NCBI GenBank assembly: GCA_052327205.1
Contig: CM126224.1
Coordinates: forward strand, 17,112,001 to 17,176,000
DNA: 64,000 nucleotides
Direction: 5' to 3'
From: Somniosus microcephalus
Taxonomy: Eukaryota
In this document: piece after piece, positions 28,409 through 59,761 of the stretch
Position numbering within the stretch: position 1 is the first letter of the stretch
Layout: each line of letters starts with the position of its first letter
Notes under the pieces: model-generated
What the model was told of the DNA's origin: nothing
The model's database searches: none
The model's input: the letters and a program-made list of their open reading frames with translations, nothing else
Made by a program: the position numbers and the translations under genes

Positions 28409-29526
28409 TTAAGGCACATGGGATCGGGGGCAAGGTGCTGACTTGGATAGAGAACTGGTTGGCAGACAGGAAGCAAAGAGTTGGAATAAACGGGTCTTTT
28501 TCCGAGTGGCAGGCAGTGACTAGTGGGGTACCGCAGGGATCGGTCCTAGGACCCCAGCTATTCACAATATATATTAATGATCTAGACGACAGAAATAGAT
28601 GTAATATCTCCAAGTTTGCAGACAACACAAAGCTGGGTGGGCGTGTGTGCTGTGAGGAGGATGCCGAGAAACCCCAGTATGGTTTGGACAGTTTGGATGA
28701 TTGGGCAGATGCATGGCAGATGCAGTATAATGTGGATAAATGCGAGGTTATCCACTTTGGTGGCAAAAACAGGAAGGCAGATTATCTGAACGGCAATAGA
28801 TTGGGAGAAGGGGAAGTGCAACGAGACCTGGGTGTCCTTGTGCACCAATCGCTGAAGGTAAGCATGCAGGTGCAGCAGGCGGTTAAGGCGGCAAATGGTA
28901 TGTTGGCCTTCGTAGCCAGAGGGTTCGAGTACAGGAACAAGGATGTCTTGCTGCAGTTGTACAGGGCCTTGGTGAGACCACACATTGAGTATTGTGCACA
29001 GTTCTGGTCGCCTTATCTGAGGAAGGATGTTCTTGCCATGGAGGGAGTGCAGCGAAGATTCACCAGACTGATACCTGGGATGGCAGGAATGATGTATGAG
29101 GAGAGATTGGGCTTATACTCGCTGGAGTTTAGAAGAATGAGAGGGGATCTCATTGAAACTTATAAAATACTAACAGGACTAGACAGACTAGATGCAGGAA
29201 GGCTGTTCCCGATGGTCGGGGAGTCCAGAACCAGGGGTCACAGTCTAAGGATAAGGGGTAAGCCATTTAGGACAGAGATGAGGAGGAATTTCTTCACCCA
29301 GAGAGTGGTGAACCTGTGGAATTCTCTACGACAGAAGGCAGTTGAGGCCAATTCATTAAATATATTCAAGAAGGAGTTAGATATATTTCTTGAGGCTAAA
29401 GGGATATGGGGATAAAGCAGGGACAGGGTACTGAATTTGGATGATCAGCCATGATCTCATTGAATGGCGGAGCAGGCTCGAGGGGCCGAATGGCCTACTC
29501 CTGCTCCTATCTTCTATGTTTCTATG
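28409..29526 (+). mobile_element. 5'-truncated CR1 LINE (RT C-terminal half), nested in an older CR1 3' end
   Basis: 343-aa ORF with [18 protein letters not shown] and LYRALVRPHIEYC; (TTCTATG)-type tail; older CR1 sequence on both sides. Confidence 0.93.
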
Positions 29527-31971
29527 TAAAGAGATACGAGAACAGAGTGGGCACATGGGATTAGGACTACACTTTATGTGGAGGGTAAACACCAACACAA
29601 GATAAACACAGGCTGAACAGCCTGTTTCCGTGTTGTAATTTCTATGCAGTTCTACATCTGCCTGGCTCAGGTATCAGATTACTGAGTCCACTATGGGGAG
29701 TTGATTCAATCCTAATCTTCCTTTAGCAGGTGTGTTATCCTGGAGCCAATTTGACAAAAGAGGCCCCATTTACCTTTGCCCCCCCAGGAGAATCGTTAGT
29801 TGCTTATTAGACAAACTGACAAAGGGTTGGCATGGTAGCTGCCAGACAGTGTTGCTAGCTTCTTGCAAGGCAAACAGCAGAAACAAGGAACGGTCACAGT
29901 TGGCTTAATGAGCAGTTCAGCTCACCTTAGAATGAGTGTTGTCACTATCCTCCTGAGCATAGTTTGCCCATACCTCACTAAATTGTGCTTTCATCAATTG
30001 TTGGTGAAAAGGTTTAGCAACAACTGCCTTGCATCTCTGCAATACAATCGTGGTTGGCACAGACCCTCTGACACATCAGCATATGGTGGTCTAAACAGCA
30101 TTCAGGCAACTCTTGTCTAGCAGCTGCTGTGCCAAGCCTCAGTTTTGTCAGCTACGTGGCAGGCATCTGCTTTCAGCAAGGTGGAAGGATCCATGCTGGA
30201 CAGCTTGCTTTGTACCAAGCACCTTGATGTTCCAGATTCCAAGTCCATGCTGTGTCCCAGACTTGCTGGTCACCGGGTTGCTTAATAAAAGGTCTTCATG
30301 CAAGGCACTTTGTAAAGAGATGTGCTTGTTGCGAGACTGCCTCCCCTCCACGGTACCAAGTCACGGGTCAATGTCTTTCTTGAAACTTACCTCGTTGCCT
30401 TTATCTATTCTGCTATAAATATCTTCAGTCCTTTTCCTTAGTCTTCAATGTGCTACCAATCTTTCAAAGTTTATTCTTTCCTGACACACTTTCATTGTCT
30501 TTTTCATTTACCTTCTCATTTGCCTCCTCCTCTCTCTCTCCAAGTTCAATGTAATTCAGTCTCAAAGTTAGTTGACTGAGCTGACTGGAGTGGGCAGTTC
30601 TGATCCAAGTGGAAGTGGTTTTAATGCGACTTTGAACCCACATAAAAGTATAATTAAAAACCAAACAAGCAAGTCTTATTAAGAAAGAGGATTTAGAAGT
30701 TGGTGGAGGTTTGTGAATTCTAAGGATAACCCATGGCTGCCGACTTCTCTTCTCACATCTCAAGGATCACATTTTCACACCTGGCAATAGCCCAGAAAAC
30801 AACTATTTAATGTATTTATATATTTTTTTAAAATGTAAACCATGTTGCCTGTTGCAAGACAGGAAATTGGAAAATGAATTCTGTGAGCATGAATTTTCGG
30901 AGGAACTTTTACAATTTTCCAGTCACACTTTAAAAAAAAAAATCAAGAAATATCTCAGAAATTGCCACCAGAATTGCTAACTTTTCTTTCAGATTCAGAA
31001 TTACCTGTAGTGCATGTCCTACACTTTATTTTTATTCCCGATTTCCAGAATTCATGGCTTCTTCCCAACTTCAAAAGGGCCGTTTATGTTGGTGGTGAAA
31101 AGCAGCACGTGATCGAGACTGAGGCAGGGTGTTAGGCACAGTTCAGTAAAGACAACTAAACGCAGAGCTGAAAAACGTTACTGTGTAATTTGCATGTATT
31201 TTAAGCTGCATACAACTGTGACAACTGAAGCAGATGTAACCCTGCAGTTATATTTGTGGCAAACTAAGTTGGTGTTTAGGAGTAACCCTTTTAATCAGCA
31301 CACTGCATTTACTGAAAATGCTCTTGCTATTCCAGAGCTCTGGCTGCTCCAAGGGTAGGTTTAATTCTTGCTGTTGTATAATCTGTTAACGGTTCAATTG
31401 ATCTTCCAGGGAATTCTGTGTTCCTCAAGTTGAAGGACGACAGTGCTGAACAGCAGGACATTTTTTCCCCTCTTTGCAATCAGTGACAATATCAACCACT
31501 CTCAGCTGATATGTATTATGGGATGGACATCAGTCAAGTGCCTTTACCATACCCTGATCATGTGCATCAACCTCAACTCTGGGGTAAAAAGCATAAAGCA
31601 TCCCTCATTTCATCAATCTAACACTTCCATTATCAGCTATCCAGTGGGACTCTGCAATCGGTAAATTATTGAATCAATTAATTTCCAAAGCGTTCCTTTT
31701 TAAAAAAAAAAATCCAGTTTCTTGATTTAAATATACATGAAAGTATGCATCCATGAAATGCCATACAGACATTCTGCTGTAGCAGCCGCATAAAACGGAG
31801 ATGACAGCATAAACCTAAATATAGCCAACTGCTGCCCTGAAGGCATGTTGCTGAAATTTATGGATAAGCTTCTGTCATTGCATGGATTGAAGGCCTGGAC
31901 ATTTTGTCACATACTCATTTGCTAAATTGAATCAAGCACCAAAAAGCCTGAAGGGACAGGAAGGGCCTTAC

Positions 31972-32073
31972 CTCTGAAGTCTGCTTCTGCCATTCCAACC
32001 TACGGATGGGTGCTGAGTCTAATGCAGACAATATAGCCAGGTATGAATTAAAATTATTCAGTTTGCGCAAGTG
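31972..32073 (-). CDS. RAPGEF1: RAPGEF1 coding exon
   Basis: AG/GT bounded, 102 nt; HLRKLNNFNSYLAILSALDSAPIRRLEWQKQTSE. Confidence 0.95.
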
Positions 32074-32588: not shown

Positions 32589-32825
32589 CTGAAAGAGACC
32601 AACAGGAGTTAACAGATGAAAATACTTTGGCCTGTAATTTGCGGTCAGCGGCAAAGCAAAGGTGCTGAAGAGAGCTGCCCAGAGATCTCGCGATCTGGGA
32701 CAAGAAGTTTATCTTTTTCAACCTTCATTTGATTGTCACTCTGTCATGGGGATTCTCAGCGAAGAGCTGCAGCGACGTCAACAAGCTGTCTAAGCAGCCA
32801 ATCACATTGAAGAATTCTCAGACAG

Positions 32826-34740
32826 GAAACATAAGAACATAAGAAATAGGAGCAGGAGTAGGCCATTCGGCCCTTCGAACCTGCTCCGCCATTCAATGAG
32901 ATCATGGCTGATCTTCTGCCTCAACTCCATTCACCGGCCCTATCGCCATATCCCTTGATGCCTGTACTAGTCTGAAATCTATCAACTTCTGTTTTGAATA
33001 TACCCAATGACTGAGCCTCCACAGCCCTCTGGGGTAGAGAATTCCAAAGATTCACCACCCTCTGTATGAAGAAATTTCTTCTCATCTCGGTCCTGAATGG
33101 CCTACCCTTTATCCTGAGGCTGTGGTCCCTGGTTCTAGACTCCCCAGCCAAGGGAAACATTCTCCCAGCATCCACCCTATCAAGCCCTGTAATGCTTCAA
33201 TGAGACCCCCTCTCATTCTTCTGAATTCAAGAGAATACAGGCCTCGTTTACTCAATCTCTTCTCATAAGACAGTCCCGCCATCCCAGGAATCAATCTCGT
33301 GAACCTTCGTTGCACTCCCTCTATGGCAAGTATATCCTTCCTTAGGTAAGGAGGCCAAAATTGTACACAGTACTCCAGGTGTGGTCTCACCAAGGCCTTA
33401 TATAATTGGAGTAAGACTTCTTACTCAAATCCTCTTGTAATGAAGGCCAGCATGCCATTTGTCTTCCTAATGGCTTGCTGCACCTGCACATTCACTTTCA
33501 GTGACTCATGTACAAAGACACCCAGGTCCCTTTGAGCATCTGCATTCCCCAATCTTTCACCATTTAGGAAATACTCTGCCTTTCTGTTTTTTCTACCAAA
33601 GTGGATAACTTCACATTTATCCACATTATATTCCATCTGCCATGTTCTTGTCCACTCACTGAGCCTGTCGAGATCCCCTTGAAGCCTCTTGACAACTGAC
33701 ACTGCCACCTAGCTTTGTATCATCAGCAAATTTGGAAATGTTACATTTAGTCCAATCATTGATATAGATTGTGAATAGCTGGGGCCCAAGCACCGATCCT
33801 TGCGGTACCCCACTGGTCACAGCCTGCCATCCTGAAAAAGACCCGTTTATCCCTACTCTTTGTTTTCTGTCTGTTAAACAATGTTCAATCCATGCTAGTA
33901 TATTACCCCTAATTCCATGTGCCCTAATTTTGTTCACCAACCTCTTGTGTGGGACCTTTTCGAAGGCATTCTGAAAATCCAGATACACCACATCTACCGG
34001 TTCCCCTTTGTCTACTCCACTAGTTACATCCTCAAAGAACTCCAATAGGTTTGTCAAACAGGATTTACCTTTCATAAATCCATGTTGACTCTGCCCAATC
34101 TTACTATTAGTTTCTAAGTGCCCAGTTATTGCATCCTTTATAATAGATTCCAGCATTTTCCCAACTACTGATGAGGCTAACAGGTCTGTAGTTCCCCGTT
34201 TTCTCTCTCCCTCCTTTCTTAAATAGCAGGGTTACATTTGCTATCCTCCAATCTGCAGGAACCGTTCCAGAATCTATAGAATTTTGGAAGATGACAACCA
34301 ATGCGTCCACTACCCCAATGCCACCTCTTTCAAAACCCTAGGATGTAGGTCATCCGGTCCTTGGGATTTATTGACTTTTAGTCCCATTAATTTTGCTAGT
34401 ACTGTTTTTTTTTTACTAATAATAATTTCTTTAAGTTCCTGATTCTCGCCACATCCTTGGTTTTCTCGTATTTCTGGGAGGTTTTTTGTGTCTTCCTCCG
34501 TGAAGACAGAAAAAGTATTTATTTAATTTCTCTTCCATTTCCTCATTCCCCATTATAAATTCTGCCGTCTCTGACTGTAAAGGATCTACATTTACCTTCG
34601 CCAGTCTTTTCCTTTTCACATACCTATAAAGCTTTTACAATCCGTTTTTATATTTTTCGTTAGTTTGTGCTCATATCCAATTTTCCCTTTATCAATTTCT
34701 TGGTCCTCCTTTGCTGATTTCTAAAAAGATTCCAATCTTT
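32826..34740 (-). mobile_element. 5'-truncated CR1 LINE with frameshifted ORF2
   Basis: ORF pieces with [42 protein letters not shown] and FADDTKL; (ATAAGAAC) tail repeats. Confidence 0.93.
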
Positions 34741-41955: not shown

Positions 41956-42031
41956 CTTTACGATCCGTTTCAGTTGCATGCACTATGAGAATATCTACAG
42001 AGCCTCCTCGCACCGCTGGGCCATCCTCTCC
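41956..42031 (-). CDS. RAPGEF1: RAPGEF1 coding exon (not in ORF track)
   Basis: AG/GT bounded, 76 nt; GEDGPAVRGGSVDILIVHATETDRK(D). Confidence 0.94.
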
Positions 42032-44075
42032 CTAGAATACAGACGTTCAAATGAAAAACTCTCAAAATATAGAAGCAAGAAAAAAGGAACCTTAATTTAA
42101 TAAAATGCATCAATAAATATCAGAGACCAACACTGATAATATTTGATGACTGGTCAAATGATAAAAGTCCATCTCTTTCCTCAGTCCATTATACTAGTAA
42201 CTGGAAAACTGATGATCTACTTTATAGACAGAGCTCTGTATTCCCAATTTTAAAGATTTTAGATTAACTTGATCCAACTTCTCCACTTCAGTGTAAAAAA
42301 TGCCATTGGTTGAGGCAAAGGAATTTTTTTTTTTGTTTGTTTTTTTTTTTGACAGGGGCGGGGTAGCAGAAAGGTCTGAAATCTGATGGACCCAAGCAAA
42401 TTTGCAGTGCTATGGGGAGAGAGATCAGTGGGACTAATTGGATCGCACTTTCATAGTGCCGACACAGACACAATGAGCCGAATAGTCTCCTTCTGTGCTG
42501 CGAGATTCTATAATTCTAAACAGCATGCAATAAATACACTGTTGCAGTATTCAGTTTGTACCCCCAAGTAAATTAAAATCAATTAGCAACATGTAGCTGA
42601 AGAAATTAAGTAACGATTCAAATTCACTCGAGTGTGCAATTCCTGTTAGCACCTGAACATGTTGATAGTGGATTAAAGAGCAGTATGACGAGAGAAATAC
42701 AGGAATCTCCAGGATATAGACTTTAGAAATGTGCAAAAAGAAAAACACGAGCTTCCTTCTTCTGTAGCAAAATTGCTTGTATACATGTAGTTAATCCTCA
42801 GCAATGAATGTTTAGTGATTATACACATACAGACACACACATATCCAAAAATGACATTGACCATGCAAAAACAGTTAGATTCATTCTATTTCCTCTTACC
42901 TGCACAAGAAAGGATGGACCATTTAAATTTTCAATTGATGTACTCAAGTACATTGAATTACAGGAGTATGGAATCACTGCAATATGAACATCCCAAAAGC
43001 TCGCAAAGTACATTCCTAACTAATCACACATGGCAACGTCTATGGCTAGCAGAATATGATCAAACATCTCAACAGTTTGAGAAATACCGAAGGCATCAGT
43101 TACTCCACCTTGGATGCCATTTAAGTAGATGTTTCAAAAGTGAAGGGAGGGATAGAGAAGGGAAGGATCGATCACTTCCCCCTGGTCTATTGTTTTTGTG
43201 AATTCAGTATGAAACATTTGCAAACAAGGGGAGCCATTTCCTGATGGCTTCACTTGGGAGTAGGGACTGGGTTCAGGAGGGTAAGGGGGATTCTAATGTC
43301 TATGAAAATTAAAGTTAGCAGATCAAAATCCAATATTTCAGATACTGAGATACAGCAATTATATCAGAAGTTTTGCACATGTACAAAATGGTTAACACCC
43401 ACCTCGACAAGCCACAAACCCAGCAGGAGCCTGACTAGAGTAGCCCAACCAATTTGAGTCCAGAGGATTCAAACAATATTGACACAAAAGTTTACAATAT
43501 ACCAACACAGCAGATTTCTCATTTAATGGCATTCCTTGTCGCCAAGTCTTTTACTAGTGGTAACTTGAGACAAATCTGCAATTATATACACACTCTGGGA
43601 ATACTTTCAAACAGGCCATGGGATAGAAACTGGGATTCCTCGACTTTTAATGTGGAGAAGCCTATAAGCTTCCTGGTAGAGAGCCACACTTTATTTTTGT
43701 CTACTCAAAGGAATTACTACTTTATCTATTTCAGAAACAAGACAGGCTGGTGGTTACTCTCAGTGTTCGATTAATCTTTAATAAAGAGACAAAAGAATTT
43801 TCATATCCCCCTTCCAAATCATTACATCTATGTATATATATATATATATATATATAAAAGAGCTCTTCTGTCTGTCTGTCCCGATGTCTGTCTGTCCGTC
43901 CGTTCTCTATACGTTTGAAAGTTAGAGCGTACCGACGCGCGCGTCGCCTCAAAAGAAAGCTTGCGATTCCGGACCGGTCATAGGCGTATTTACGTTTCGG
44001 CCGGACAAGAATCCCGCCCGCGGTATCCCAAAAACGTTCAGCGTTCCGCTCATTAGCATCTCATTAGCGACCGTG

Positions 44076-44242
44076 TGACGTCGAGGTCCACCAATCGGAC
44101 GGCGGGTTCCTTCCTACAGTTGAGTGTCGAGTGACTCGACGATTGACCAATCCTATGCTTCGGTGACCTGACCGGTCAACCAATCGGTGCGTGTGTGGGC
44201 GGGCCTTATCCTTCTGAACCGAGGTGAGTGGCCGCCATCTTG
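44076..44242 (+). promoter_or_regulatory. Pol II promoter-like motif cluster plus splice donor inside the Helitron
   Basis: TGACGTCG 44076; CCAAT 44091, 44147, 44180; TGGGCGGGCC 44196; GAG|GTGAGT 44224; GGCCGCCATCTTG (YY1) 44230. Confidence 0.6.
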
Positions 44243-44332
44243 ATTTTTCACAATTTTTTCCCCCACACTGTGTGTTAGGGAACTAAGGTAAATATTTTAA
44301 TGATGTGTTAGGGAATTAAATAACAATTTAAT

Positions 44333-44593
44333 GGGGGGGGGGGGGGGGGGGGGGGAGCGCCTCGGGAAATCGCGGGGGGGGGGGGGAGCCTCGGGAAATC
44401 GCGGGGGGGGCCCTCGGGAAATCGGGGGGGGGGGGGGAGCCTCGGGAAATCGCGGGGGGGGGGGTGGAGCCTTGGGAAATCGCGGGGGGGGGGCCTCGGG
44501 AAATCGGGGGGGGGGAAAAGAGCCTCGGGAAATCGCGGGGGGGGCCTCGGGAAATCGGGGGGGGGGGGGGAAGAGCCTCGGGAAATCGCGGGG
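44333..44593. repeat. G-rich minisatellite, 9 units of CCTCGGGAAATCG(CG) separated by poly-G
   Basis: Units counted directly in the sequence. Confidence 0.9.
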
Positions 44594-44632
44594 CGCTCGC
44601 GCCGCCCGCACTGACCGCGCATGCGCCACCCG

Positions 44633-45182
44633 CACTGACCGCGCATGCGCCGCCCGCCCGCCGCGGCCGTCCATCAGCCGCGCGATACGCGGGGGACCTC
44701 AGCTCCGGACCTCAGGCGCTAGGCAGGGGGAGGGGCCAGAGAGAGGGACAGAGGGGAGGAAGGGAGGGAGAGGAGGGGGAGGGAGAGGGAGAGGAGGGGA
44801 AGGGAGGGGAGGGAGGGATAGGACAGGGAGAGGGAGAGGACATGAGAGGGAGAGGGGGGACACACAGGGGCAGGGAGACCAAGCGCCCCAAAATTGCCCA
44901 CTGACCGCGCATGCGCCGCCCGCCCGCCCACAGCGGCCGTCCATCAGCCGCGCCATACGCGGGGGACCTCAGCTCCGGACCTCAGGCGCTAGGCAGGGGG
45001 AGGGGCCGGAGAGAGGGACAGAGGGGAGTGGGGGAGCGGGGGTGGGGGAGGGGAGGGAGGGAGGGAGGGAGACAGGGGAGGGGAGGGAGGGGAGGGGAGG
45101 GGAGGGATAGGACAGGGAGAGGACATGACAGGGAGAGGGGGGACACACAGGGGCAGGGAGACCAAGCGCCCCAAAATTGCCC
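44633..45182. repeat. Tandem duplication of a ~270-bp unit inside the Helitron
   Basis: Units start CACTGACCGCGCATGCGCC at 44633 and 44899; both end ...AAGCGCCCCAAAATTGCC. Confidence 0.9.
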
Positions 45183-46454
45183 TCGCGCCCCAAAATTGCC
45201 CTCGCAACGCGGGGCTCCCCAGCTAGTAACTATATAAAAGGTTATTGCACTCCAAAAAGTGAAATGCTTTAGGAGGACATTTGGTACGGCACCACATGAA
45301 AGAGTTCTTTCTCCAAAATCACCCTTTGGTTTTTCAAAATATATCCTTCATGGCACTGGAAGTCTCAAACAATAGGCAAAGTAGTCATGACATTAGGTAT
45401 TAAACAGGCCCTCAATTCCTGCTGTGGCCTGCTGTGAAAGGAAATAGTGGAGGCCCAATTATTCAGGGAGCACAGTTCTTGTGGCAGGCAGACAAGGGAA
45501 GGGCGAGAAAAAGAAAACAGGTAGACTAAGGGTTTTATCTCCCTTTTTCCTTCCCATTTGATTCTTCAAATCACTTCTTTTTCCCATTCAATTATCTGCT
45601 GGTAATACTGTACTGCTCAAATTTCTTTCCAACAAAATCTGATTGAACTGTAATAAAAGCTAAAATTTCTATATTCAGCGATATAAAAAAATCTTGCATC
45701 TGCACGCACGTGCCACCTTTTCCATTATAAAGTCTTATTATGTTCACAGTTATCGAGAGACAAATGACATAGGCAATTTCTATCATAAATGCAGACATAG
45801 GAATTTATAACGGAAATATAAAAATAAGGTCAGAACGTCTGAGTTTAAAATGGGGACTGGATTAAATCTGCACCCTAGCCAGCCCTCTAACTACACTTCA
45901 CCCGACAAACACACTTGGTCTTGATTCCGTGTGCAACACCATGGAAAAGCGACTGGTATATATTTAAATTGATGAATATTGTGCTTCATTACATTTTGTT
46001 ATTGTGATTTGGTTAATGTATAATTTTCCTGAGCATGTAATAGACGATGAGAAAATTGGTAGAAAGAACTGTGGAATAAACATCATTTTTTTTTTACGCA
46101 TTGGAGTGTAAAGTTAATAGAATTCCTTACTCAACTGTGAAGGTGAGAAACTATGCCTCAGTGAAGTAACTAACTATTCCATTACTCCAACTGCTGATTC
46201 TTCAATTTATTTGAAGATTGCATATAAATGAATTAGGACAGCCCACGGTTTGAGGATGAATGGAATATGGCAGTGATAAATAGAATTGAGTGTTAAATCT
46301 TGTTCAGAAGTAACTTTTGTTGGTGCGCAATAAGAAGTTCTGATTTACAGGAACAGGGGCAATCTGGCTGCAAATAGACAGCATTGTACCACAGTACATC
46401 TGTGGTACGTAGTAAATACCTTTAACAATCAATTAATCAGTGATGCTCTTATAC

Positions 46455-47068
46455 AATTCCCCTGGAGTCTCCAGGAATTGAAGATTAATCTTCTGGATGC
46501 TGCTGCGAACAATCCAGGAGAAAAATCATAGCGACATTAAAAAAAGTATTTCCATTTTCGTTTAACAATTAGGAACATAGGAACAGGAGTAGGTCATTGA
46601 GCTCCTCGAGCCTGTTCCACCATTCAGTGAGATCATGGCTGATCTGTGACCTAACTCCATATACCCGCTTTTGGCCCATATCCTTTAATACGTTTGGTTA
46701 ACAAAAATCTATCAATCTCAGATTTAAAATTAATTGATCTAGCATCAATTGCCATTTGCGGAAGAGTGTTCCAAACTTCTACCACCCTTTGTGTGTTTCG
46801 TAATTTCACTCCTGAAAGGCCTGGCTCTCATTTTTAGACTATGCCCCCAGTCCTAGACTCCCTAACCAGTGGAAATAGTTTCTCTCTATCTACCCTTTCT
46901 GTTCCCCTCAATATCTTGAAAACTTCGATCAGATCACCCTGTAACCGTCTAACACTTTGGTTTATTAGTTATAGAAATATTGGATCTGGGAAAATCGGTT
47001 GTTTGGCCGTTGGAGGTGGGAAAACATGTGATGAAACCGCCAGGAATACATCCACCGAGTCAACAGCT
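46455..47068. mobile_element. Putative non-autonomous DNA element (hAT-like) interrupted by a CR1
   Basis: CCTGGAGTCTCCAGG palindrome and recurrent CCAGGA motifs on both sides of the CR1; termini degenerate; family call from recall only. Confidence 0.35.
46572..46946 (-). mobile_element. CR1 LINE 3' fragment
   Basis: (GGAACATA) tail; reverse complement of the 3' part of the 48458 copy. Confidence 0.85.
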
Positions 47069-48457
47069 CTACGGAACGGTGTATGAAAGTCATATGTTTT
47101 GATGATGTAAAGTGACTGTCGTATTCAGGGGAAGATTAAAAAGTGATCAAATGCATCTTGAGTTTTGGATTATTTAATCTGCATGTGTAACAGTGGCATA
47201 TATTTCTAGAGATCTGAAACTCGCGTTTTAAAGTGAAATTCAAGATGGATGTAATGATTACAAGACCCAAGAACTATGACTCCTCCCATTTCATACACGT
47301 CTATGTAAACTCACATTCGTCAAGTTTCCAAATTAATTTTAATTTTATTTTTAGTTAAAATTATCACTTCAAAATGTAAGCCTTTGTGGTTAAAATTTAA
47401 TTAAGTTTACCCCTAGTCCCATAGGAACTGATCTCTGCAGTGAACATTTCAACTAAAGCATTAAGCGTTAGAAATGCTCGACACTCCCAACAGGAGGTCA
47501 GTGCTTGTAACCCCACCAGCACATCTATCCTGCCAAAATAGCCCGTCAATGTTTCTGTATTTTGAGGCAATATCAAACTAAAAAACTATTACATTGCTAG
47601 ACAGTAGATGTAATGATTGGGAAATAATTGTGCAATTGCACTAAATAAACTAAGGTGTGTTTTACTATTATGGCAAGTTTTCTCTCAAGTTAATTGTTCA
47701 TTTCCAAAACTAACACACAAAAGGTAGGTTTCCATCACAAGAAATTTTAACTAAGATGGTGAAACAGCCTGGACTAAGGACAGCTGCTTTTATACTGGTC
47801 TTTGGCTCCTGGCTCCCACAGTACGTAGCTGGTGGCCACATTAAAATAAACTTCTTGGGATTTTTAAGACCAGTGGCCAAGGCCATTTTTCACTGGATCT
47901 TCCTGACTACTGCCAGTCCTCACGAGGCCAGTAAATGCACCACCATGGCAGCTGTAGGGCACATATGGTGATATCACATGGCGCCATTGTGCACACAAAC
48001 CATTATTCTCATTGTGGCAACGGCATAATATACTCCACACAAAGACAATGGCCAGAATGGTGGGCCCATACGGTTAAACCAGTTTACGGGGCGAACTGCT
48101 GTACTTCCGGTGGCTGCACGCCATTATGTAATCAGTCTGACACTCCAGGATGGAGATGGCATTGTAGACACAAGAGTTGAGTCTGCAAATCTGTCTGTTT
48201 TAAGACTACCACAGAGTTAAGTATACACAGGGAGCTAGTCCTGCACATTTGCACTCTTGGTCTCTACATTACAGCCTACAGAAACAAAGTACCGATGCAA
48301 AGTGTAAAAAAAGCACAGTACTCTTCCAAAACAGGAACAAAAAACCCATCAAGGATAAATGCATCTTGTGCATTTAGTCAGTGACATTCCAAAATTGACT
48401 GGAGAGAACAGGTACTTACCCTAGTCTGCTCTTGTATAAAACATCTCTGGATATTAT

Positions 48458-49449
48458 ATGCAGGGATCTGTGTTGGGGCCTCAACTATTTACAGTATTTA
48501 TTAACAGCTTAAATGATGGCATAGAAAGTCACACATCCAAATTTGACGATGGCACGAAGATAGGCGGCATTGTAGATGAAAGCATAAAATTACAAAGGGT
48601 TATCGACAGATTAAGTGAATGGGCAAAACTATGTCAAATGGATTTCAATGTAGGCAAATGAGAGGTCATCCACTTTGGACCTAAAAAGGATAGAATAGGG
48701 TACTTCCTAAATGGTGAAAAGTTAAAAACAGTGGAGGTCCAAAAAGACTTGGGGGTTCAGGTACATAGATCATTAAAATGTCATGAACAGGTATAGAAAA
48801 TAATTTTAAAAAGCTAATAGAATGCTGGCCTTTATATCTAGAGGACAAGAATACAAGGGGGTAGAAGTTATGCTGCAGCTATACAAAACCCTGGTTAGAC
48901 CACACCTGGAGTACTGTGAGCAGTTCTGGGCACCACACCTTAGGAAGGATATATTGGCCTTGGAGGGAGTGCAGCGTAGGTTTACCAGAATGATACCCGG
49001 ACTTCAAGGGTTAAATCACAAGGAGAGATTTCACAAATTAGGGTTGTATTCCCTAGAATTTAGACGGTTGAGGGGTGATCTGATCGAAGTTTACAAGATA
49101 CTAAGGGGAACAGATAGGGTAGATAGAGAGAAAGTATTTCGGCTGGTTGGGATTCTAGGACTAGGGGTCATAGTACAAAAATTAGAGCCAGACCTTTCAG
49201 GAGTCAAATTAGGAAACACTTCTACACACAAAGGGTGGTAGAAGTTTGGAACTCTTTTCAGCAAACGGCAATTGACGCTAGATCAATTGTTAATTTAAAA
49301 TCGGAGATTGATAGCTTTTTGTTACCTAAAGGTATTAAGGGATATGGGCCGAAGGCGGGTATATGGAGTTAGGTCGCAGATCAGCCATGATCTCATTGAA
49401 TGGTGGAACAGGCTCGAGGGGCTCAATGACCTACTCCTGTTCCTATGTT
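48458..49449 (+). mobile_element. 5'-truncated CR1 LINE
   Basis: [23 protein letters not shown] and RRLRGDLIEVYKIL; stops and frameshifts. Confidence 0.9.
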
Positions 49450-50152
49450 CAGCTGCTGGGCACCAGTTATTCACCATCACAGGTTTTTTTCTTCATTTTA
49501 AGTACAAGGGCAACAAATCGGTAGAACATGTGGGTAACATCAGAGCGAGTCAGAATTGATATCCTCCCAACATTCAGTATTTGGAAAATCACTTAAAAAA
49601 AATATAAGCAATGAACTTCATTCTACCACTAAAACTGCAATCATCAAAACGTTCTCCAGATATTGTTTGCTTACTGCAATCACTACTACCTCCAGCAGGT
49701 TTTCTTTGGGGCTGCCCTCTTGAACCTGTCATTTTCTTCCTGCTCCACAATGTCATCCTACATTTTATTTATAAGACAGTTAAATTGAGCAGTTTCAATG
49801 TCAAACTGCAATGGGTTTATAAAGGTCAACAAACCCCAGAGACTGAATTACTTCCTTTAACTCACTGGCAGGTATAGGCTATTGTTTACAATACTGAATA
49901 AAAATCAAGTTCATTTTTGACTGCTTTCATCATTGTGCAAGAGAGGTAGCATACAAGTGTAATTAAAAAAACTGACAGTGATCTGGAAGGTTTATAGTAT
50001 ACACAGCGGGTGCTATAGTATATTACAGATTTGTTATGAAATTGATACAAAATATTTGTAGCATGATAAAACTTGAAATCAGCCCTGAGCAGTCACAACA
50101 TTCAAAACAAACAAAGAACAAGATGAAGTCGCTGAGTGTGGAAGAGTAAATA

Positions 50153-50485
50153 CAGGAAACTTTGTGCTATCCGGAGGTGAGCTATCCGGCAATCTGGAGC
50201 CACCGGCAAAAATCAGCAGCCGTTTTTTATTCTTTTTGTTTGTTTTTTTTGCTTTGTTTGAACAGTCAAGCTGTGCAAGGTCTGTAGCTATAGCAACAGC
50301 TTCAGCTACAGAGCTTTAGGGCCACACCCGAGTGTTTAGAAGCTGTTGCTAAGCAACAGTGTTTGTTGTCAAATACGGAGATAAGAATCTCCGTATCTCG
50401 CAACATTAACTCTGGAGAGTACGGAAGTTTTGAGGCAACGGCAGCAGCTCGGTCCCGTGGGTGCCGGATAGCACAAAGTTTCCTG
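50153..50485. mobile_element. Tc1/mariner (Tigger/pogo-like) MITE, copy 2
   Basis: Perfect 22-bp TIR CAGGAAACTTTGTGCTATCCGG, with TA on both sides. Confidence 0.85.
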
Positions 50486-50639
50486 TATTATGAAAATCCC
50501 ACATTCAGCATAGTCAACCACTCCATCAACTGTCTCCTGTAGAGTTGACCTGCCACTCATATCTGGCACAAAGTATCCATCACATCTCCAACAATGGCTC
50601 GAATCCCTGATTCACTACCAAAGTATCCCATCCTTGAAT

Positions 50640-51520
50640 CCCCCCTGTTCATTCTGGCCCTCAGACATTATCTGTAGGCATGGGGGTCAGTTTCCATGCA
50701 TAAACTGATGATGCACGCTGGATTCAGTGACCACCTCTTATCACAAGGCTTCTCTGACATTAAGTCGTGGATAAGCCAGAATTTTCTCCAATTGAATATG
50801 GTGAAAACTGAAGCCATCGTATCTTTCCTCCCCACCAAAACTTCTACTCCCTTGTCAATTCCGTCCCCTTCCTCAGCTGCCCAGCCAGGCTGAACCAGGT
50901 GGTACAGTGTGTCCTGTTTGACCCTGATTTGGGTTCAAAACCAATACCTTATCCATCAAGATTGCTTAATTCCACCTGTGTGTGATTACTCCTCAGCCCC
51001 TCCCCCAAGCTCACCCCATTCTCACAGAAACGCTTATCCATGCTTTTGTTAAGTCAAGTCTTGACTTTTCCAATGACCTTATGCGTTCCATCCTACATGA
51101 ACTCCAACATGCGCAAAACTGTCACCAACATACAGCCCTGCACCAAGTCCCACTCACCCATCACCACTGCCCTGGACGAACCTCCATTGACTGCCTGGGC
51201 CCCACTGAATTTAAAAACCTCGCTCCCATTAAAAATAATTCTTGACACACACTACCACCAGCACTGCATCCTAGCCTGCACCCCTCAGTCCTCTGATACT
51301 GGCCTCCTGTGTATCCATTTTTATTCATTCCTCTATCTGCAGCAAACCCTTCAGCTATCTCCAGCCTACTTTCTGAACCACCTTAATTTATTACTTCTCT
51401 CCCACCTTTAAAGCTTTTTGACCATGCTTTTGGTCATCTCTTACCACTATGCAGAAAACACTCTCCATTGCGTGAAGCACTTTTGGGCAGTTGTGCGAAA
51501 GGCACTACACAACTTGTTGC
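50640..51520 (+). mobile_element. Degenerate L2 LINE 3' fragment
   Basis: SDIKSWISQNFLQLNMVKTE and ETLIHAFVKSSLDFSN L2-like motifs. Confidence 0.7.
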
Positions 51521-51540
51521 CGATAGCTTCTTGCAAGGGT

Positions 51541-51930
51541 TTATTATTTTTTATTCGTTCATAAGATGTGGGCGTCGCTGGCAAGGCCAGCATTTATTGC
51601 CCACCCCTAGTTGCCCTCAAGAAGGTGGTGGTGAGCCGCCTTCTTGAACTGCTGCAGTCCATGTGGTGAAGGTGCTCCAACAGTGCTGTTAGGGAGGGAG
51701 TTTCAGGATTTTGACCCAGCGACGAAGGAACGGCGATATACTTCCAAGTCAGGATGATGTGTGACTTGGAGGTGGTGGTGTTCCCATGCGCCTGCTGCCC
51801 TTGTCCTTCTAGGTGGTAGAGGTCGCGGGTTTGGGAGGTGCTGCCGAAGAAGTCTTGGTGAGTTGCTGCAGTGCATCTTGTAGATGGTACACACTGCAGC
51901 CACGGTGCGCCGGTGGTGGAGGGAGTGAAT
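51541..51930 (-). mobile_element. LINE 3' end (same family as 26873)
   Basis: IHSLHHRRTVAAVCTIYKMHCSNSPRLLRQHLPNP. Confidence 0.8.
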
Positions 51931-52660
51931 GTACATTACAAAAGATTAAAATTTTAATAGGGAACAGAAGGCATCCACAAGCAGGAACTGAAAAATTAAA
52001 AAGGAAAGAGGTGGTAGGAGGCTACCTGATCTGGAAAGATACTGCTATCCTACTAAATTGGGAATGTGCTAAAATGAATAAAAGATAAGAGTGGCAGTCT
52101 CTTGGATGTCCAAAGAAAGAAATTTATTGCACAGGAGCATCGATCATTTAAAAAAGAGGGCTGGGAAGATGATTCAATTGTTGGGTACAATGAGTACTAG
52201 ATACATAAAAATCAGGACGTGAATGCACATTGTACTTGTGCAATAATGCATGGACAATAAAAGGGATCTAAAATTGTTGATTTGCTAGTTTCAGCCTAGC
52301 ACAAAAAGCTACAATTACCTGGAGGTCAATGTGATCACTGCCTACATATCTGGACAACTTGATAGGATAGGGGGTGGGTGGATAGGAATAGGGAGAAGAA
52401 ACTACGACTAACTACAAAAAGCTTCCGTGTGTACCAATTGAATGGAGTGTATTTTTGGGGGGGGTGGAGTGGGAAGAGAGAAAGATTTCAATGAAGTTGG
52501 TAAGAAAGTATAAGTAGTTAAAATGGAAGATCAATTGGTGAGGAAGAATGGAGGAGCAGAAACAACCAAAGATTAAAATTAATGCGACTAACTAACAAAT
52601 GTCCTATTTTCTTTTGACATCCTTTACTTTAAACAATATCTCCTAGTCCTCAAATCCTGT

Positions 52661-52755
52661 TCTGACAAAAGCTCATTGACCTGAAACGTTAACTGTTTCT
52701 CTCTCCACAGATGCTGCCTGACCTGCTGAGTATTTACAGCATTTTCTGTTTTTTA
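52661..52755 (+). mobile_element. Short Penelope-terminal-repeat-like insertion with 13-bp target-site duplication
   Basis: CCTCAAATCCTGT at 52648-52660 and 52756-52768; internal CTGACAA...GAAACGTTAAC. Confidence 0.65.
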
Positions 52756-55372
52756 CCTCAAATCCTGTGCCCTGCAGAAGAACTTTCTTGGGTCCAAGTT
52801 CTCCATACCCTTGAAATTAAAATTATGGAAGGAAGCTCAAGATGCATTCAAAGTGACTTGTATGTAATCAATCTTTACGGCTCATGGTACATAATGTGAG
52901 GGAAGAGTATTTGGAAAAGTTTAAAATTACTAATTTTTCTGGCATTTTTGTTGGCAACGCTTACCTGTATGAAGTACTGCTAGAATCGGATTCAGTCAAG
53001 TACCCAAGAATGGATGAGCATTTATGAATATGGTGTATCTGGAAACAATTGGCATGAAATCCCAGGGAGAGTGATGATTTATAATAGAACGTGGGTTAAA
53101 ATGTGGGAACCAGCAAAGGGAGGTATCTGACAGGCTAACCCGTCAAATTCCACGTGAAAGACTGAACTGGTCTTTTTGCCTCTCATTCCCCCTTGTGAAC
53201 AGTATATTATTTGAGGACCAAAAATGCACAGTCCCTGCCCCATGTCTGGAAAAAATAAAATGAAGTCAGTTCATACTTAATTAGTCTATTTAAATACAGT
53301 AAAAGTTAAATGACCAAAGGTAGCATCTCCAACCACATCAGCGGTAAATAATCAAATGCTGCATATTTCAATAGAAACTTAAACTCAAACTTGACTTCTA
53401 CTTCAGGGTGATCGGTAAAACTGCAATCTGTTTTTTTGTCTTAATGTAAGGAACATTGCACCAAACTGCCAATTAACTCACATCCAAAATGATTACACGT
53501 AGATTCCAGTTCTGCCCTTGCACTGCACCCCCCACTCAAGGGGCACACAAGCTCTGAGAAGCGATGAATTGTGCGATTGTTTTTGACAGCTGCTGGCTAC
53601 CAGGGGCTTTGCCGTCACAACTCAAAAATCAATCCTTAGATAAGGAGGCTAGGCCTCCTCCTGCACAGTCAGTAATGCAATTCATGGCCCATTGGGTCCT
53701 GGCCACATCTGCATCTGTTCTGAATATTAGCTTCTGAAGCTGAGGCAACAATTGGCTGTAGCCAATTCAATTCGGTTATCGTTCTTGCAGACTCTGAGGG
53801 CTAGCCCACACTGGAGTGCTTTATTACCTTATGTTTTCTCAGAGGCAGAAGAGAGAGTGAAAGCAATAGATTTCCTGTATTTAATGGAAAACTTTACTTG
53901 CATTCTGTATATACACACAAAAGATGTGAGCAGATCCCATGATTTGCCCCAGGTGCACAACTCCAACTTTGAAAATAGATTTTAATTGATTGAATGTAGA
54001 GTACACAAATTTAATGCACATTTAAAGCCCTAACCAATTTAACCAAGTGCAGCATTTTAACCATTAGTTTCTGTGTTAAAACAAAAAAGATATAATGGAT
54101 GAATCCTGCAACCGCACATTTAAACTAATTTTGTGTATTTGTTTTGAAGTGAACTAGAGACTGATGTGAAACATCAACATTTAGCAGAATGACCACAAGA
54201 GACAAATGCTTTTGATGACATATTGGGTCCTTGATGAAAAGAGTGGCATCAAGCAGGTTTCCCCATGGAATCTCATGTATAGACGTGATAAGGCAATGAA
54301 CATCCATTTATCACAACCTCCTGTTTGCATCCTGTGAGGAAGTAATATAACCTATTCAACATCTCATGCACCACAAGTAGCCAGTTTCATGTTAAGGCCA
54401 GGATGCGAGAACTATCAAATGTTCCGGGAATGTTATGGGGCTAGTGTGCTAACTGTGACTAACGTCATGAATAGAGACATGATCCCCTCTCATATTGTTT
54501 TGTTTATGCTTCACATAAAATCTGTTTAAATAAACTTGCTCTGGCATGTGTAGAAATTTGAAAAATCTTAGTATGTACACCACACATGGTATAAATCATC
54601 TATGCAGCTCTATAACCGTTTGTCTGTGAGACGCAATATTTTGAACTCCGATTAAATTGAGAAGACTGATAGTCTGTTTCGACTTCAGTTCTCTACACAG
54701 GCATTTTCTGATCCGATTTAAATCTTCATGGGGAGGGTACAGGGCAGTGGCTCTCTCTTACTGAAAACAAAGAAAAAGAGCATAATCTTTTGTCTGCTCT
54801 TGGGCAGTTTGTAATAGACCGCTCAAAAGGCTCAAGAACAGAAACAGAAAATGCTGGAAATGCACAGACCAGTCACTATCCTTAAAGAGAAAAGACAGGT
54901 TATGATGTTTCCAATGACTGCTACTCAGCTATTCTACTGGAAGTTCATTCAGCTGTTTAATGAAACCCGGGCTCTACCCAAACTTGACTGTGATGGACAA
55001 CACTGGGCAAACTGCTCTGCTAGATTGAGACAGCAGTGCAACAGAAGCAATGGGAAAAATTGGATACTCGGTTTGTAGAATTGCTCAAAAAATAAATAAG
55101 TTTTGTTGGGGACTAGATTATTTATTTAATTGGGTTCTACTGTATTTCCATTCATCCCTATTATATTTAAATCTGATACAAGCACATATTTGTAGTGTAC
55201 TAGGCAAGGCACACACCTGCTATATATAAAATCATTGATCAAGCACAGAATGTAAATGTATCACTTCAATTTGCTTCAATGATATGGAAGCTTTGAATCA
55301 AGCACAACTCTTGCCAAGTTAGTCATGGCTCAGTAGCCTTTATGCTTCATCAGTTCTGGTCCTCAGTTCCAA

Positions 55373-55820
55373 CAACAACAACTTGTATTTATATAGCGTC
55401 TTTTAACGTAGTAAAATGTCCCAAGGCGTTGCACGGGAGTATTTTAAGACAAAGAAAATGACACCGATCCACATGAGGATAAATTAGGCCAGGTGACCAA
55501 AAGCTTGGTCAAAGAGTTAGGTTTTAAAAGGAGGAAAGAGAGGTAGCAAGGCAGAGGTGTTTAGGGAGGGAATGCCAGCGCTTAGGGCGGGAATGCCAGC
55601 GCTTAGGGCCTAGGCAACAGGAGGCACGGCCAACAAAGTTTGAGCGATTATAATCAGGGATGCTCAAGAGGGCAGAATTAGAGGAGCTCGGATATCTCGG
55701 AGTTGTGGGGCTGAAGGAGATTACAGAAATAGGATGGGGCAAGGCTATGGAGGGATTTGAAAACAAGGATGAGAATTTTGAAATCGAGGCGCTGCTCAAC
55801 CTGGGAGCCAATGTAGGTCA
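55373..55820 (-). mobile_element. L2 LINE 3' end
   Basis: RLDFKILILVFKSLHSLAPSY; tail GCTATATAAATACAAG(TTG)n. Confidence 0.85.
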
Positions 55821-56725
55821 ATATAATTCCAAGGAAGAAAGACAAGATGCTCAGGGAAGAAACCATGATTTGGTGGATTGGGGGGGACGGTTGAGAAAAC
55901 AGGAACCAGCACCCTCTATATGAAGTAATATTTTATTTGGGTGAAGATATCTCTTTTATAATTCATCATCATTGAGAACCAATATTTCAACTAACTGGGA
56001 GCATTTGGAGTCAAGTTACAGGCCACTTGCAGACAACTCTGAACAGAATCCTGTGACTTTGCATCCAAACCAGACTAGATACCAGAGGTGCCTGGCCCAT
56101 AACACTCAAACAGAAATGCCCACGGTATCTTTACCAGTTAACAGGCCTGCATGCCGATTTCTGCAGTTCTCCATAAAGCTGTGTCCGACCTGACTGCCAG
56201 CTGACTGGCTCCCTGATAAGAAGGGAGACCTGAAATAGTAGGTCTCAAGGCTAAAATAAAATGTAGGATATTTCCTACCCAGCAGAATTGTTCACAAACT
56301 TACCTTCTAAGTATTCCTCCTGTGCTGCTTTGAAGTGGAACTAGCTGCAGTTTACATTTTTTTTTAAAAAATAGGAGGGCTATAAAAATAGCCAGTTAAT
56401 GTTGACCACTCCAGGGAATGTATGACCCCTACAGCCCCAAACCACGTATCAAATCACTACACTGAAGATTGGAGAAATCATGGGATGACATTAGTTTGCA
56501 AATTTAGTGCATGTTGTCAGCATTTGCAATTTGGTTACCAGATTTGGTACAGATACTGGCAGTATCTAGATGTGAACTCTTAAAAGATTTAATATTTTGC
56601 ATTTTTGAATGTGACTTTTTTCTCATGAAGGTGAAGGGTGCCAGTGTTGGGGAATGTGTGGAAATATGTATTTCCCCACCTAGGTTATAGCACAGCATAA
56701 AGCTCTTTGGTATTGGCTCCAAAAT

Positions 56726-57829
56726 GTGCATAAGAGATTAGCGTGCAAAGTTAAAGCACACAGGATTGGGGGCAAGGTACTGACTTGGACAGAGAACTGG
56801 TTGGCAGACAGGAAGCAAAGAGTTGGAATAAACGGGTCTTTTTCCGAGTGGCAGGCAGTGACTAGTGGGGTACCGCAGGGATCGGTGCTAGGACCCCAGC
56901 TATTCACAATATATATTAATGATCTAGACGAGGGAACTAGATGTCATATCTCCAAGTTTGCAGGCGACAGAAAGCTGGGTAGGCGTGTGTGCTGTGAGGA
57001 GGATGCAGAGAAACTCCAGCATGATTTGGACAGGTTGGGTGATTGGGCTGATGCATGGCAGATGCAGTATAATATGGATAAATGCGAGGTTATCCACTTT
57101 GGTGGCAAAAACAGGAAGGCAGATTATTATCTGAATGGCAATAAATTGGGAAGAGGGGAAGTGCAACGAGAGCTGGGTGTCCTTGCGCATGCAGGTGCAG
57201 CAGGCGAGAGGATTAGAGTACAGGAGCAAGGATGTCTTGCTGCAGTTGTACAGGGCTTTGGTGAGACTACACCTTGAGTATTGTGTGCAGTTTTGGTCGC
57301 CTTATCTGAGGAAGGATGTTCTTGCCATGGAGGGATTGCAGTGAAGATTCACCAGACTGATAGCTGGGATGGCAGGAATGATGTATGAAGAGAGATTGGG
57401 TCGATTATGCTTATATTCGCTAGAGTTTAGAAGAATGAGAGGGGATCTCATTGAAACTTATAAAATTCTAACAGGACTAGACATACTAGATGCAGGAAGG
57501 ATGTTCCCGATGGTGGGTGAGTCCAGAACCAGGCGTCACAGTCTAAGGATAAGGGGTAAGCCATTTAGGACTGGGATGAGGAGGAATTTCTTCACCCAGA
57601 GAGTGGTGAACCTGTGGAATTCTCTACCACAGAAGGCAGTTGAGGCCAATTCATTAAAAATATTCAAGAAGGAGTTAGATATATTTCTTAAGGCTAAAGG
57701 GATCAAGGGATATGGGGAGAAAGCAGGGACAGGGTACTGAATTTGGATGATCAGCCATGATCTCATTAAATGGCAGAACAGGCTCGAGGGGCCGAATGGC
57801 CTACTCCTGATCCTATCTTCTATGTTTCT
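56726..57829 (+). mobile_element. 5'-truncated CR1 LINE, sister of the 28409 copy
   Basis: Near-identical RT peptides to 28384-29415, with an internal deletion and a stop. Confidence 0.93.
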
Positions 57830-58524
57830 AGTCTTAATTTCAGATTATCCCTGCGTTGAAATAAGGTTTTCCACTTCCGCTACAAACTTATGGTTTCTTT
57901 GGGGCAAGGGTGGGGGGACACTGCCAATCTTGCTGGTAGTTTTCTATTGTGGGCTCACTTGCAAACTCATTTCTTAGAGCCAGCAGAGATTAGACTTTCA
58001 TCCCACCAGGCTGTGCTGGATATGAATCCATGCCCAAGAGGTGAAAGCTCATTGTACCACCCACTTTAGCAAAAGAAACCTATACAACCAGGCATAATTC
58101 AGAAGACGAAAATATTTGAACTGAAAGTAATTATATCCTCAAATTATCCTTCACCTTAACTTATATAAAGTCACAATCCCATATAATGGTTTCTATAGAA
58201 CCAGGACAAAATAGCCAATGCCTCAATCATATTGATGGTAAGATGCAGTTCTTTAATCAAAGCACAATACATACTGACAGGGAAGAGCGTGCGTTTTCGC
58301 CTCTGAGCAGCAGTCAGCTACTACAAGCTACAACGAATGATGGCAGAGGCAGCAACAGAAAAATGCCATAACGGAGGCTGACATTTCATTATCAGCCAAC
58401 CTGCAAATCAAACCTCTAAACACCACTTGCGAACAGAATACGAAGAGAGCAGATATATAAATGTCAGCCTAGTGCTGGTGCAGGTACAGTATGTAACTGT
58501 ACTTCATGGTAAACCACAGGTATA

Positions 58525-59322
58525 GATCTCGCTCGCCCCTCCCCTTCTCTGTAATCTCCTCCACCCCTACAACCCTCTTGAGAACTCGGCGTTGCTCCAA
58601 TTCTGGCCTCTTGTGCAACCCCCATTTCCTTTGTTCCACCATTGGTGGCCATGCTTTCAGCGGTCTAAGCTCTGGAATTCCATCCCTAAACCCCTCTACC
58701 TCTAGCTCTCCTCCTTCAAGGCGCCCCTTAAAACCTACCTCCGAGTAAGTTTTTGGTTAGCTTTTATATCTAGAGGGTTAGAATATAAAGGGGAGGAAGT
58801 TTTGCTACAGCTATATAAAGCCCTGGTTAGCCCACATCTGGAGTACTGTGTGCAGTTCTAGGCACCGCATCTTAGAAGGGAAATATTGGCCTCGGAAGTG
58901 CAGATTCAACAGAATGTTACCAGGGTTCCAAGGGTTAAATTCTGAGGAGAGATTACATGAACTAGGCTTGTATTTCCTGGAATATAGAAGGCTAAGGAGC
59001 GATTTGATTGAGGTCTTAGAATTTAGAGAAGTTAGGAAACACTTCTTCACCCAAAGGGTGATAGAAGTGCAGAACACTCCTACAAAAAGCAGTAGTTGCT
59101 AGCTCAATTAATAATTTTAAATCGTCAAGGGTATCAAGGGATATGGAGCCAAGGTGGGTAAATGGAGTTAGGGTACAGGTCAGCCATGGTCTGAATGGGC
59201 TACTCCTGTTCCTAATATCTCCTTATGCGGCTCGGAGTCAAATTTTATCTGATAATGCTCCTGCGAAGAGCATTGGGAGGTTTTACTATGGTAAAGATGC
59301 TATATAAATCCAAGTTGTTGCT
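58525..59322 (+). mobile_element. L2 3' end split by a CR1 fragment (CR1 about 58760-59213)
   Basis: L2 sequence (matches the reverse complement of 55373-55820) stops near 58760 and resumes near 59214, up to the GCTATATAAATCCAAGTTGTTG tail. Confidence 0.75.
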
Positions 59323-59761
59323 ATATATTGTAACTGCATCCCTGATCTTGAAAGTTTAACTATATATCGACTCCCAGATATAATAGCCAAGATAGAAAAT
59401 TTTGGTACAGTGTCCTTTGAACAATTCAGATGTTATGGTCTAAATAATCCCAGTGATTTCAAAAAACAAGTGTTCCACACACTGTATGCCCTACAGTGCC
59501 ACAAGAGACTTCATGCAGCTGGGAAATATTTTTGAAAATTGCTAAGTTTGTTGTTTTTACATTAACACCACATCGAGTATTAGTTTTTAATCTAGCAACA
59601 GATGATGGTGTTGCTATTGCACAGGGAGCAAGGGGCTCTTTTGCAGGTAAACATTGCTCAGCTGGTAATGCAGCACTAAAGGAATGAAGGATTAAAAGTC
59701 AGCAAATTAATCCACAGCAAGTGCATCAGTCAAACACAGTCTGTGCTAAAGGATACATTAC

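Follow-up and report, generated by a model that had tools for sequence, protein, structure and literature searches.

A promoter-like cassette with an orphaned splice donor in a non-autonomous Helitron, and its probable origin as a RepHel promoter

In the 64,000-nucleotide stretch of DNA analysed here (the window), positions 44041-44242 hold an ordered series of promoter-like motifs that ends in a consensus splice donor. The series lies in a Helitron without a transposase gene, which itself lies in an intron of RAPGEF1 in the opposite orientation. The locus thus raises two questions: whether the transposon took this promoter-like cassette from a host gene or from its own coding relatives, and whether the window copy starts transcripts antisense to RAPGEF1, as the initial annotation proposed.

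The cassette and the element that carries it

The features of the locus are collected in Table 1. The element begins with TC after an A (43826/43827) and ends in CTAG (45223-45226) before a T (45226/45227). These junctions fit an insertion between A and T that duplicated no target, and a T comes after CTAG in 27 of the 28 copies whose end lay within the fetched locus. These termini, the hairpin ahead of the 3' end and the existence of RepHel-coding relatives with shared ends identify the element as a Helitron, confirming the context in which the cassette had been placed. Two such relatives, L054 and L091, offered a 90.6% match at the 5' end, a similar 3' end and the domains PF14214 and PF05970. 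The hairpin is weak (−6.6 kcal/mol, z −1.35) and not significant alone, and a search of 42000-47000 against Rfam gave 0 matches. The cassette, 214-415 bp inside the 5' end of the 1,400-bp element, was matched to 1,922 candidate places across 6.45 Gb of genome; the best 40 of these, which were scored, are 99-100% identical. Similarity to the element extended past the cassette at all 30 fetched loci, and 11 of 30 loci were head-to-tail with another Helitron. The family containing the window copy is a young non-autonomous Helitron family.

Table 1. Features of the element, its cassette and the surrounding intron in the window.
Feature	Position	Strand	Basis or state
Non-autonomous Helitron, 1.4 kb (1,400 bp), 5'-TC...CTAG-3', without RepHel	43827..45226	+	ends and copy family
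5' terminus, (TA)n/(CTGT)n microsatellites, subterminal region	43827..44040	+	common to RepHel-coding Helitrons
Octamer-like units CTCATTAGC at 44049 and 44060	44049..44068	+	conservation per column 0.86 / 0.82
ATTAGCAT	44052	+	sequence read directly
CRE-like TGACGTCG (TGACGTC at 44076)	44076..44083	+	intact in 1/21 variant groups, 43/43 young copies
CCAAT box 1 (ACCAATC), CCAAT at 44091	44090..44096	+	intact in 17/21 variant groups
CCAAT boxes 2 and 3, CCAAT at 44147 and 44180, 33 bp apart	44146..44185	+	intact in 18/21 and 16/21 groups
GC box, GGGCGG at 44197	44196..44203	+	intact in 15/21 variant groups
Putative transcription start region with a tiny exon 1, non-coding	44204..44223	+	predicted from motif order; weak RNA strand ratio
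5' splice donor GAG/GTGAGT, cut 44223/44224	44221..44229	+	intact in 15/21 groups, 42/43 young copies; orphaned in window copy
YY1-like GGCCGCCATCTTG, opening of intron 1	44230..44242	+	12-mer intact in 9/21 groups, 41/43 young copies; column conservation 0.88
Intron 1 remnant	44243..44330	+	similarity to RepHel-coding L054 stops at ~44330; 90.6% across element positions 14-504
G-rich minisatellite filler and duplicated GC-rich piece	44331..45165	+	partly common to sister non-autonomous family
3' hairpin and CTAG end	45198..45226	+	7-bp stem ending 11 bases before element end
RAPGEF1 intron holding the element, 17.7 kb	42032..59761	−	tblastn, gene name from exon match

Each motif that had been described was found in place, with all CCAAT boxes on the plus strand and the last pair at the spacing given in Table 1. 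Read on the minus strand, 44049-44068 is GCTAATGAGATGCTAATGAG, which contains TAATGAGAT and ATGCTAAT and presumably resembles an Oct-1 site of the TAATGARAT type. The names NF-Y, Sp1, YY1, octamer and NRF1 are consensus labels that we assume throughout, and all sites are predicted. The cassette sequence has no ATG or coding remnant before the donor. The CpG observed/expected ratio is 0.58-1.83 (200-bp steps, 43801-45000) compared to 0.36 window-wide. The duplicated GC-rich piece further inside the element contains three copies of GCGCATGCGC (44617, 44641 and 44907), which we take to be NRF1-like, and is a possible captured host fragment; no host source for it was found among the best 40 of 1,207 candidates. 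The cassette was present at 28 of the 30 loci fetched for this piece, and the other two resemble interrupted copies of the element.

Chance was examined as the source of the motif cluster by dinucleotide shuffling of 44041-44242, repeated 10,000 times. At least three CCAAT boxes on one strand arose in 8 of the shuffles; three RCCAATS motifs arose in none, and neither did the joint occurrence of three CCAAT boxes, the GC box, the YY1 core and the donor. Single motifs were more frequent (YY1 core 1.2%, donor 4.8%, CRE 7.3%, GC box 10.5%). Chance is therefore ruled out as the origin of the cluster, but not as that of the CRE alone or the GC box alone.

Conservation was examined with 73 spanning copies, which formed 22 groups at 95% identity and were 67-95% identical to the window. 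Over the 21 variant groups, conservation was 0.87 for motif columns, 0.67 for other cassette columns and 0.75 for the subterminal region, and a circular shift of the motif mask reached 0.87 in 0 of 204 positions; since the groups are related and gaps were scored as mismatches, the contrast between motifs and background is overstated. The initial annotation had named loss of the motifs among family copies as evidence against its reading, and the counts for the CCAAT boxes, GC box and donor in Table 1 uphold their conservation, with 6 of the 21 groups lacking an intact donor. The last two CCAAT boxes were 32 bp apart in 18 of the 22 sequences, 33 bp in 2 and 37 bp in 1. We rejected the CRE-like 8-mer as a conserved part of the cassette; as it is intact in a single variant group, it is a recent subfamily feature. 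On these sequence comparisons, the promoter-like cassette is real and conserved.

The copies also carry the marks of CpG decay. In the 43 young copies, transitions amounted to 0.029 per CpG base and 0.0036 at other C/G, an 8-fold difference, and 45 of 82 CpG sites compared to 12 of 111 other C/G sites bore a transition. The window copy has three scored substitutions, two of which are transitions at CpG. Because an excess of CpG transitions is the established pattern of deamination, this indicates that the family has been methylated in the germline after insertion, and the window copy is probably methylated and mostly silent.

The cassette in RepHel-coding Helitrons

The genome yielded 407 candidates for PF14214, of which the best 150 were scored. 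For 20 RepHel loci, mostly picked for long open frames, the upstream 10 kb was fetched and positions were oriented to the RepHel strand. Many RepHel frames in the genome (G000) are 1,000-2,200 codons long and have no stop within the Pfam match, among them those at C2:27027509, C5:124114328 and C9:119840093. These stop-free frames, together with the 99% identical derivatives, suggest recent or ongoing Helitron activity.

The locus L054 has the clearest layout. Its 5' TC is at 6837, followed by the cassette, a donor cut at 7225/7226, an acceptor cut at 7728/7729 and the RepHel ATG at 7730. The gap between donor and acceptor is a 503-bp pyrimidine-rich stretch, which ends in TTTTTCATAACAG/A and the ATG, and the open reading frames match Helitron_like_N (E 4.9e-51) and PIF1 (E 7.4e-61). 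A strict CTCATTAGC-CCAAT module was found 5' of RepHel, without an intervening Helitron 3' end, at 13 of the 20 loci and 0 times in the 62.6 kb of window background. Adding L051 and L058, which were recognised by BLAST and donor position, a cassette or unit array lies upstream of the RepHel ATG on the same strand at 15 of the 20 loci, as a colinear cassette at 12 of them and as a tandem array with a different donor context at three (L046, L057 and L059). The distance that links module to RepHel is up to 6.2 kb (L042). Three of the five cassette-negative loci have upstream N gaps, in L050 other sequence takes over right at the cassette, and nothing was seen in L044; a complete unrelated promoter was found at none of the 20. 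The acceptor AG one base before the RepHel ATG was intact at 26 of 30 further loci, a tally drawn from a search with the acceptor as query. Since 11 of 30 loci are head-to-tail, we considered whether the upstream cassette belongs to a separate tandem element, and rejected this because at none of the 13 pattern-positive loci is the last module separated from the ATG by a 3' end.

The arrays consist of tandem ~69-bp CTCATTAGC..TTGACCAATC units with CCAAT (oriented positions 4089-4450 in L046, 4604-4961 in L059 and 4875-5024 in L057). In one RepHel subfamily, five or six such units are followed by the donor GAGCAG/GTGAGT, an amplification of promoter units. At L043, four donor-like motifs within tandem repeats lie downstream of the promoter (5820-6370, oriented).

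Two origins had been put forward for the cassette, a captured host promoter with exon 1 and the RepHel promoter kept after internal deletion. The second gained support in that the cassette is continuous with the 5' end of coding elements and faces an acceptor; the first gained none. A single-copy donor promoter was not found among the best 40 of 1,922 genome matches to the cassette. Capture would be recognised by absence of the cassette from the coding parents, yet it is present at the majority of RepHel loci given above. We consider it likely that Pol II transcribes this genome's RepHel Helitron clade from the cassette as its native promoter, with a non-coding exon 1 and the donor of intron 1, orphaned in the window copy, and the motif cluster is most likely for the most part ordinary transposon anatomy. 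Two or three CCAAT boxes, of which the last two are spaced by 32-33 bp, would act with the octamer-like units and the GC box to drive a short non-coding exon 1. Predicted binding of NF-Y, Sp1 and YY1 would set the transcription start just past the GC box. An exon 1 of 10-25 nt, ending at GAG/GTGAGT and followed by the YY1 site, would then be spliced over the pyrimidine-rich intron to the base before the RepHel ATG. The window copy would have lost the acceptor and RepHel and landed antisense in the RAPGEF1 intron. Non-autonomous derivatives would retain the cassette because it sits 200-400 bp inside the 5' end, which is needed for transposition.

Vertical co-inheritance of cassette and RepHel was examined at 10 loci, with L060 excluded as its Rep stretch is part of a second copy. 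It gained no support: cassette and RepHel distances were correlated with a rho of 0.16, and 493 of 2,000 permutations were as high. The 5' end and post-donor sequence of L054 recur in a non-autonomous family with 843 candidate members; of the 16 that were sampled, 0 have RepHel within the fetched 6 kb; L054 may therefore be a recombinant and not the parent. Since cassette distances do not track RepHel and L054 shares its end in this way, 5' modules appear to have been exchanged among RepHel bodies and non-autonomous families. The sister non-autonomous family with 843 candidates (L110 150-1120 and L108-L123) retains the donor. A separate pyrimidine tract and a CAG/GTTTGAC acceptor (7 of 16 by a strict pattern) lie in this family 5' of a GC-rich NRF1-like piece, and it could yield a spliced non-coding RNA.

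An alternative that we regard as improbable is that the promoter, exon 1 and start of intron 1 of a host housekeeping or cell-cycle gene were captured in the distant past and later became the transposase promoter of the clade, in the manner of HelibatN3 and NUBPL. Its host-like anatomy of NF-Y pair, GC box, donor and YY1 site would be accounted for, as would 5' modules that do not track RepHel; bat Helitrons favour the 5' ends of genes in their captures according to the available text of PMC4224331 and PMC4778049, and the Helitrons L043 and L052 contain further promoter-like or donor-like pieces. However, all 21 variant groups, even at 67% identity, show the cassette colinear with the 5' subterminal region of the Helitron, and its building blocks are CTCATTAGC and GACCAATC repeats whose number grows and shrinks across the clade. 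The 0 of 20 RepHel loci with a complete unrelated promoter and the lack of an ATG or coding remnant 5' of the donor also argue against capture. A better candidate for a captured host promoter than the window cassette is L052 6330-6400 (oriented), in the first intron of a RepHel Helitron, with CCAAT, TGACGTCA and sites that we take to be RFX-like. In another Helitron, a GC-rich stretch with ATGACAG/GTGAGG (L097 4680-4800) is possibly a captured host first coding exon.

RNA reads and the RAPGEF1 intron

Two raw RNA runs, X7 and X8, were chosen by species label and may come from another organism than the window. From 24% and 31% of these runs, 1,725 (X7) and 3,798 (X8) reads were placed on L054:6780-7900, with sense defined as first mates on the minus strand, as for most stranded libraries. 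Sense depth at the L054 acceptor rose from 3.6 to 64.7 in X7 and from 1.4 to 9.4 in X8, and both contig runs dropped there; this step fits use of the acceptor. The initial annotation had looked to RNA reads spliced at the donor for support, and on L054 these runs did not supply it: no donor-acceptor joint was among the 8 joints listed from 24% of X7 and 31% of X8, and no loose end at the donor was among the best 12 RNA rows listed, the weakest of which had 57 and 128 reads. Unspliced reads, at least 305 in X7 and at least 531 in X8, ran 19-22 bases past the donor before their sequence turned into that of other subfamilies. In exon 2 of L054, the main loose end matches an L053-type subfamily, and since L053-type relatives use the array promoter with another exon 1, their junction could not show as a joint on L054. 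The ratio of sense to antisense in L054 bins near the GC box changed from 0.76 to 1.12 in X7 and from 0.90 to 2.02 in X8, a weak rise that persisted after the donor. Reads of both strands already lie over the L054 cassette ahead of any start, and the bulk of the RNA signal there looks like passengers in host transcripts. Donor use, factor binding and the start site are what we infer for this promoter.

The host gene was named from a minus-strand exon (31972-32073) that retrieves proteins named RAPGEF1/C3G. A tblastn search with P0017 placed 12 exons on the minus strand, and those flanking the element (59830-59762 and 42031-41957) match residues 657-679 and 680-704 of P0017. A PDB search with one RAPGEF1 exon gave generic RasGEF matches only. 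The antisense placement was thus correctly described, the element being on the plus strand inside an intron of a minus-strand gene. That it fires antisense into RAPGEF1 was also claimed and found no support, in view of the methylation-type CpG decay, the spliced product missing from the joints listed and an early AATAAA. With the first plus-strand AATAAA at 45652, any antisense RNA would probably be confined to the intron, and an unspliced plus transcript would probably end there, 14 kb short of the nearest exon. An acceptor is missing from the window element, the rest of which is G-rich filler. For RAPGEF1, the evidence thus far speaks for no effect. A RAPGEF1-sense transcript from the element spliced into the REM/CDC25 exons was likewise considered and set aside, with 0 GTRAGT on the minus strand of 43800-45300.

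Some other features of the region were observed. The RAPGEF1 intron after the DLVLY...KLHYR exon opens with ATATCCTT (41244, minus strand) and the frame of the next exon implies an AC end, which we take to be an AT-AC (U12-type) intron by consensus. About 12 near-identical copies of a RasGEF-domain gene, an expanded family, lie in G000 at C12:188-227 Mb and C37:13.9-14.2 Mb. In the window, LINE-like fragments of either orientation are dispersed over 4940-5390, 28400-29530, 32800-33950, 46570-46950, 48830-49460 and 56730-57830; among them is an inverted pair at 93% with a distance of 2.5 kb.

It is quite unlikely, in our estimate, that the window copy works as a mobile start module, active and producing spliced antisense RNA in RAPGEF1, or that the module traps downstream exons at other insertions. 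The motifs are intact in the window copy and in 38-43 of the 43 young copies, RNA reads with the window-type 11-base deletion were present (15 of 130 in X7 and 83 of 456 in X8), the sense share goes up near the GC box, and HelibatN3 acts as an exon trap according to the available text of PMC4778049. Against this stand the 8-fold CpG decay, the window copy included, the coverage of both strands that is expected of passengers in host transcripts, the lack of a donor loose end among the RNA rows listed, and an element without an acceptor whose first AATAAA follows at 45652. We give very little credence to the proposal that the motifs serve transposition or chromatin opening, through host factors that leave the site nicked by RepHel accessible, with the donor incidental: the CCAAT boxes and GCCAT core persist in variant groups without the donor, which is not intact in 6 of 21, and gene-less non-autonomous families retain the cassette, but motif order, strand, donor and facing acceptor suit transcription towards RepHel, and inheritance from a coding parent accounts for the retention.

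Relation to known Helitrons and host promoters

Transcription of the transposase in animal Helitrons is poorly described, and the family offers a testable model with a promoter, a tiny exon 1, an intron and an acceptor. A literature search of mostly open-access sources found no account, at the level of motifs, of the promoter that a Helitron itself brings along, and no study dedicated to Helitrons of sharks. The case for a native RepHel promoter also carries a caution that a host-like promoter in a non-autonomous Helitron need not mean gene capture. Any of the thousands of copies that escaped methylation would together form a large pool of alternative first exons. Beyond this, it is conceivable, although we think it rather unlikely, that the clade expresses its transposase from a cell-cycle or early-embryo type of promoter with NF-Y pair, octamer and YY1 site, that its modules are swapped between RepHel lineages, and that thousands of orphan-donor copies serve as first exons when methylation is relaxed in germline or embryo. 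If true, this would be a self-made counterpart to bat promoter capture in a non-mammalian vertebrate.

The 6.45-Gb genome is not bat-like in size; its size and repeat types point to a probable cartilaginous fish. The bat case of promoter capture serves as a model for the window Helitron by analogy only. In Myotis, HelibatN3 carries the NUBPL promoter and splice donor, which are host-derived from a known single-copy source, include six codons and have been shown to be active, according to the available text of PMC4778049 and PMC4224331. Like HelibatN3 as described there, the family studied here is a high-copy non-autonomous Helitron with a promoter and an unpaired donor, in principle an exon trap. 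Unlike that element, its cassette is common to RepHel-coding elements, has no ATG before the donor and is active by prediction only. Because coding elements carry the cassette and a source gene was not found, we do not class it with captured promoters.

The nearest coding counterpart is Heli1Xen1 of Xenopus laevis, for which the available text of PMC12001565 describes myb and foxn4 ChIP peaks at a presumed 5' promoter and low RNA coverage. In both cases a coding Helitron of a vertebrate is presumed to have its promoter at the 5' end; the motif anatomy, non-coding exon and donor-acceptor pair were resolved here from the DNA alone, and the accessible part of that account does not describe them for Heli1Xen1. 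With their TC...CTRR ends, 3' hairpin, insertion between A and T and RepHel (PF14214 and PF05970), canonical Helitrons belong to the same class and form the same head-to-tail arrays. What goes beyond them is the promoter, exon-1 and intron-1 anatomy, together with 5' modules that RepHel lineages appear to have exchanged. Among host promoters, NF-Y pairs are said to require a spacing of 33 bp in an AURKA review (PMC9448500), and YY1 sites in the 5'-UTR intron of UBC support expression and splicing according to the available text of PMC3680475. The Helitron cassette resembles these promoters in its CCAAT pair about 30-33 bp apart and its YY1 site in a 5'-UTR intron. AURKA and UBC, as presented in those sources, are single-copy host genes with tested sites, whereas binding to the Helitron cassette is predicted by consensus in a family of many copies.
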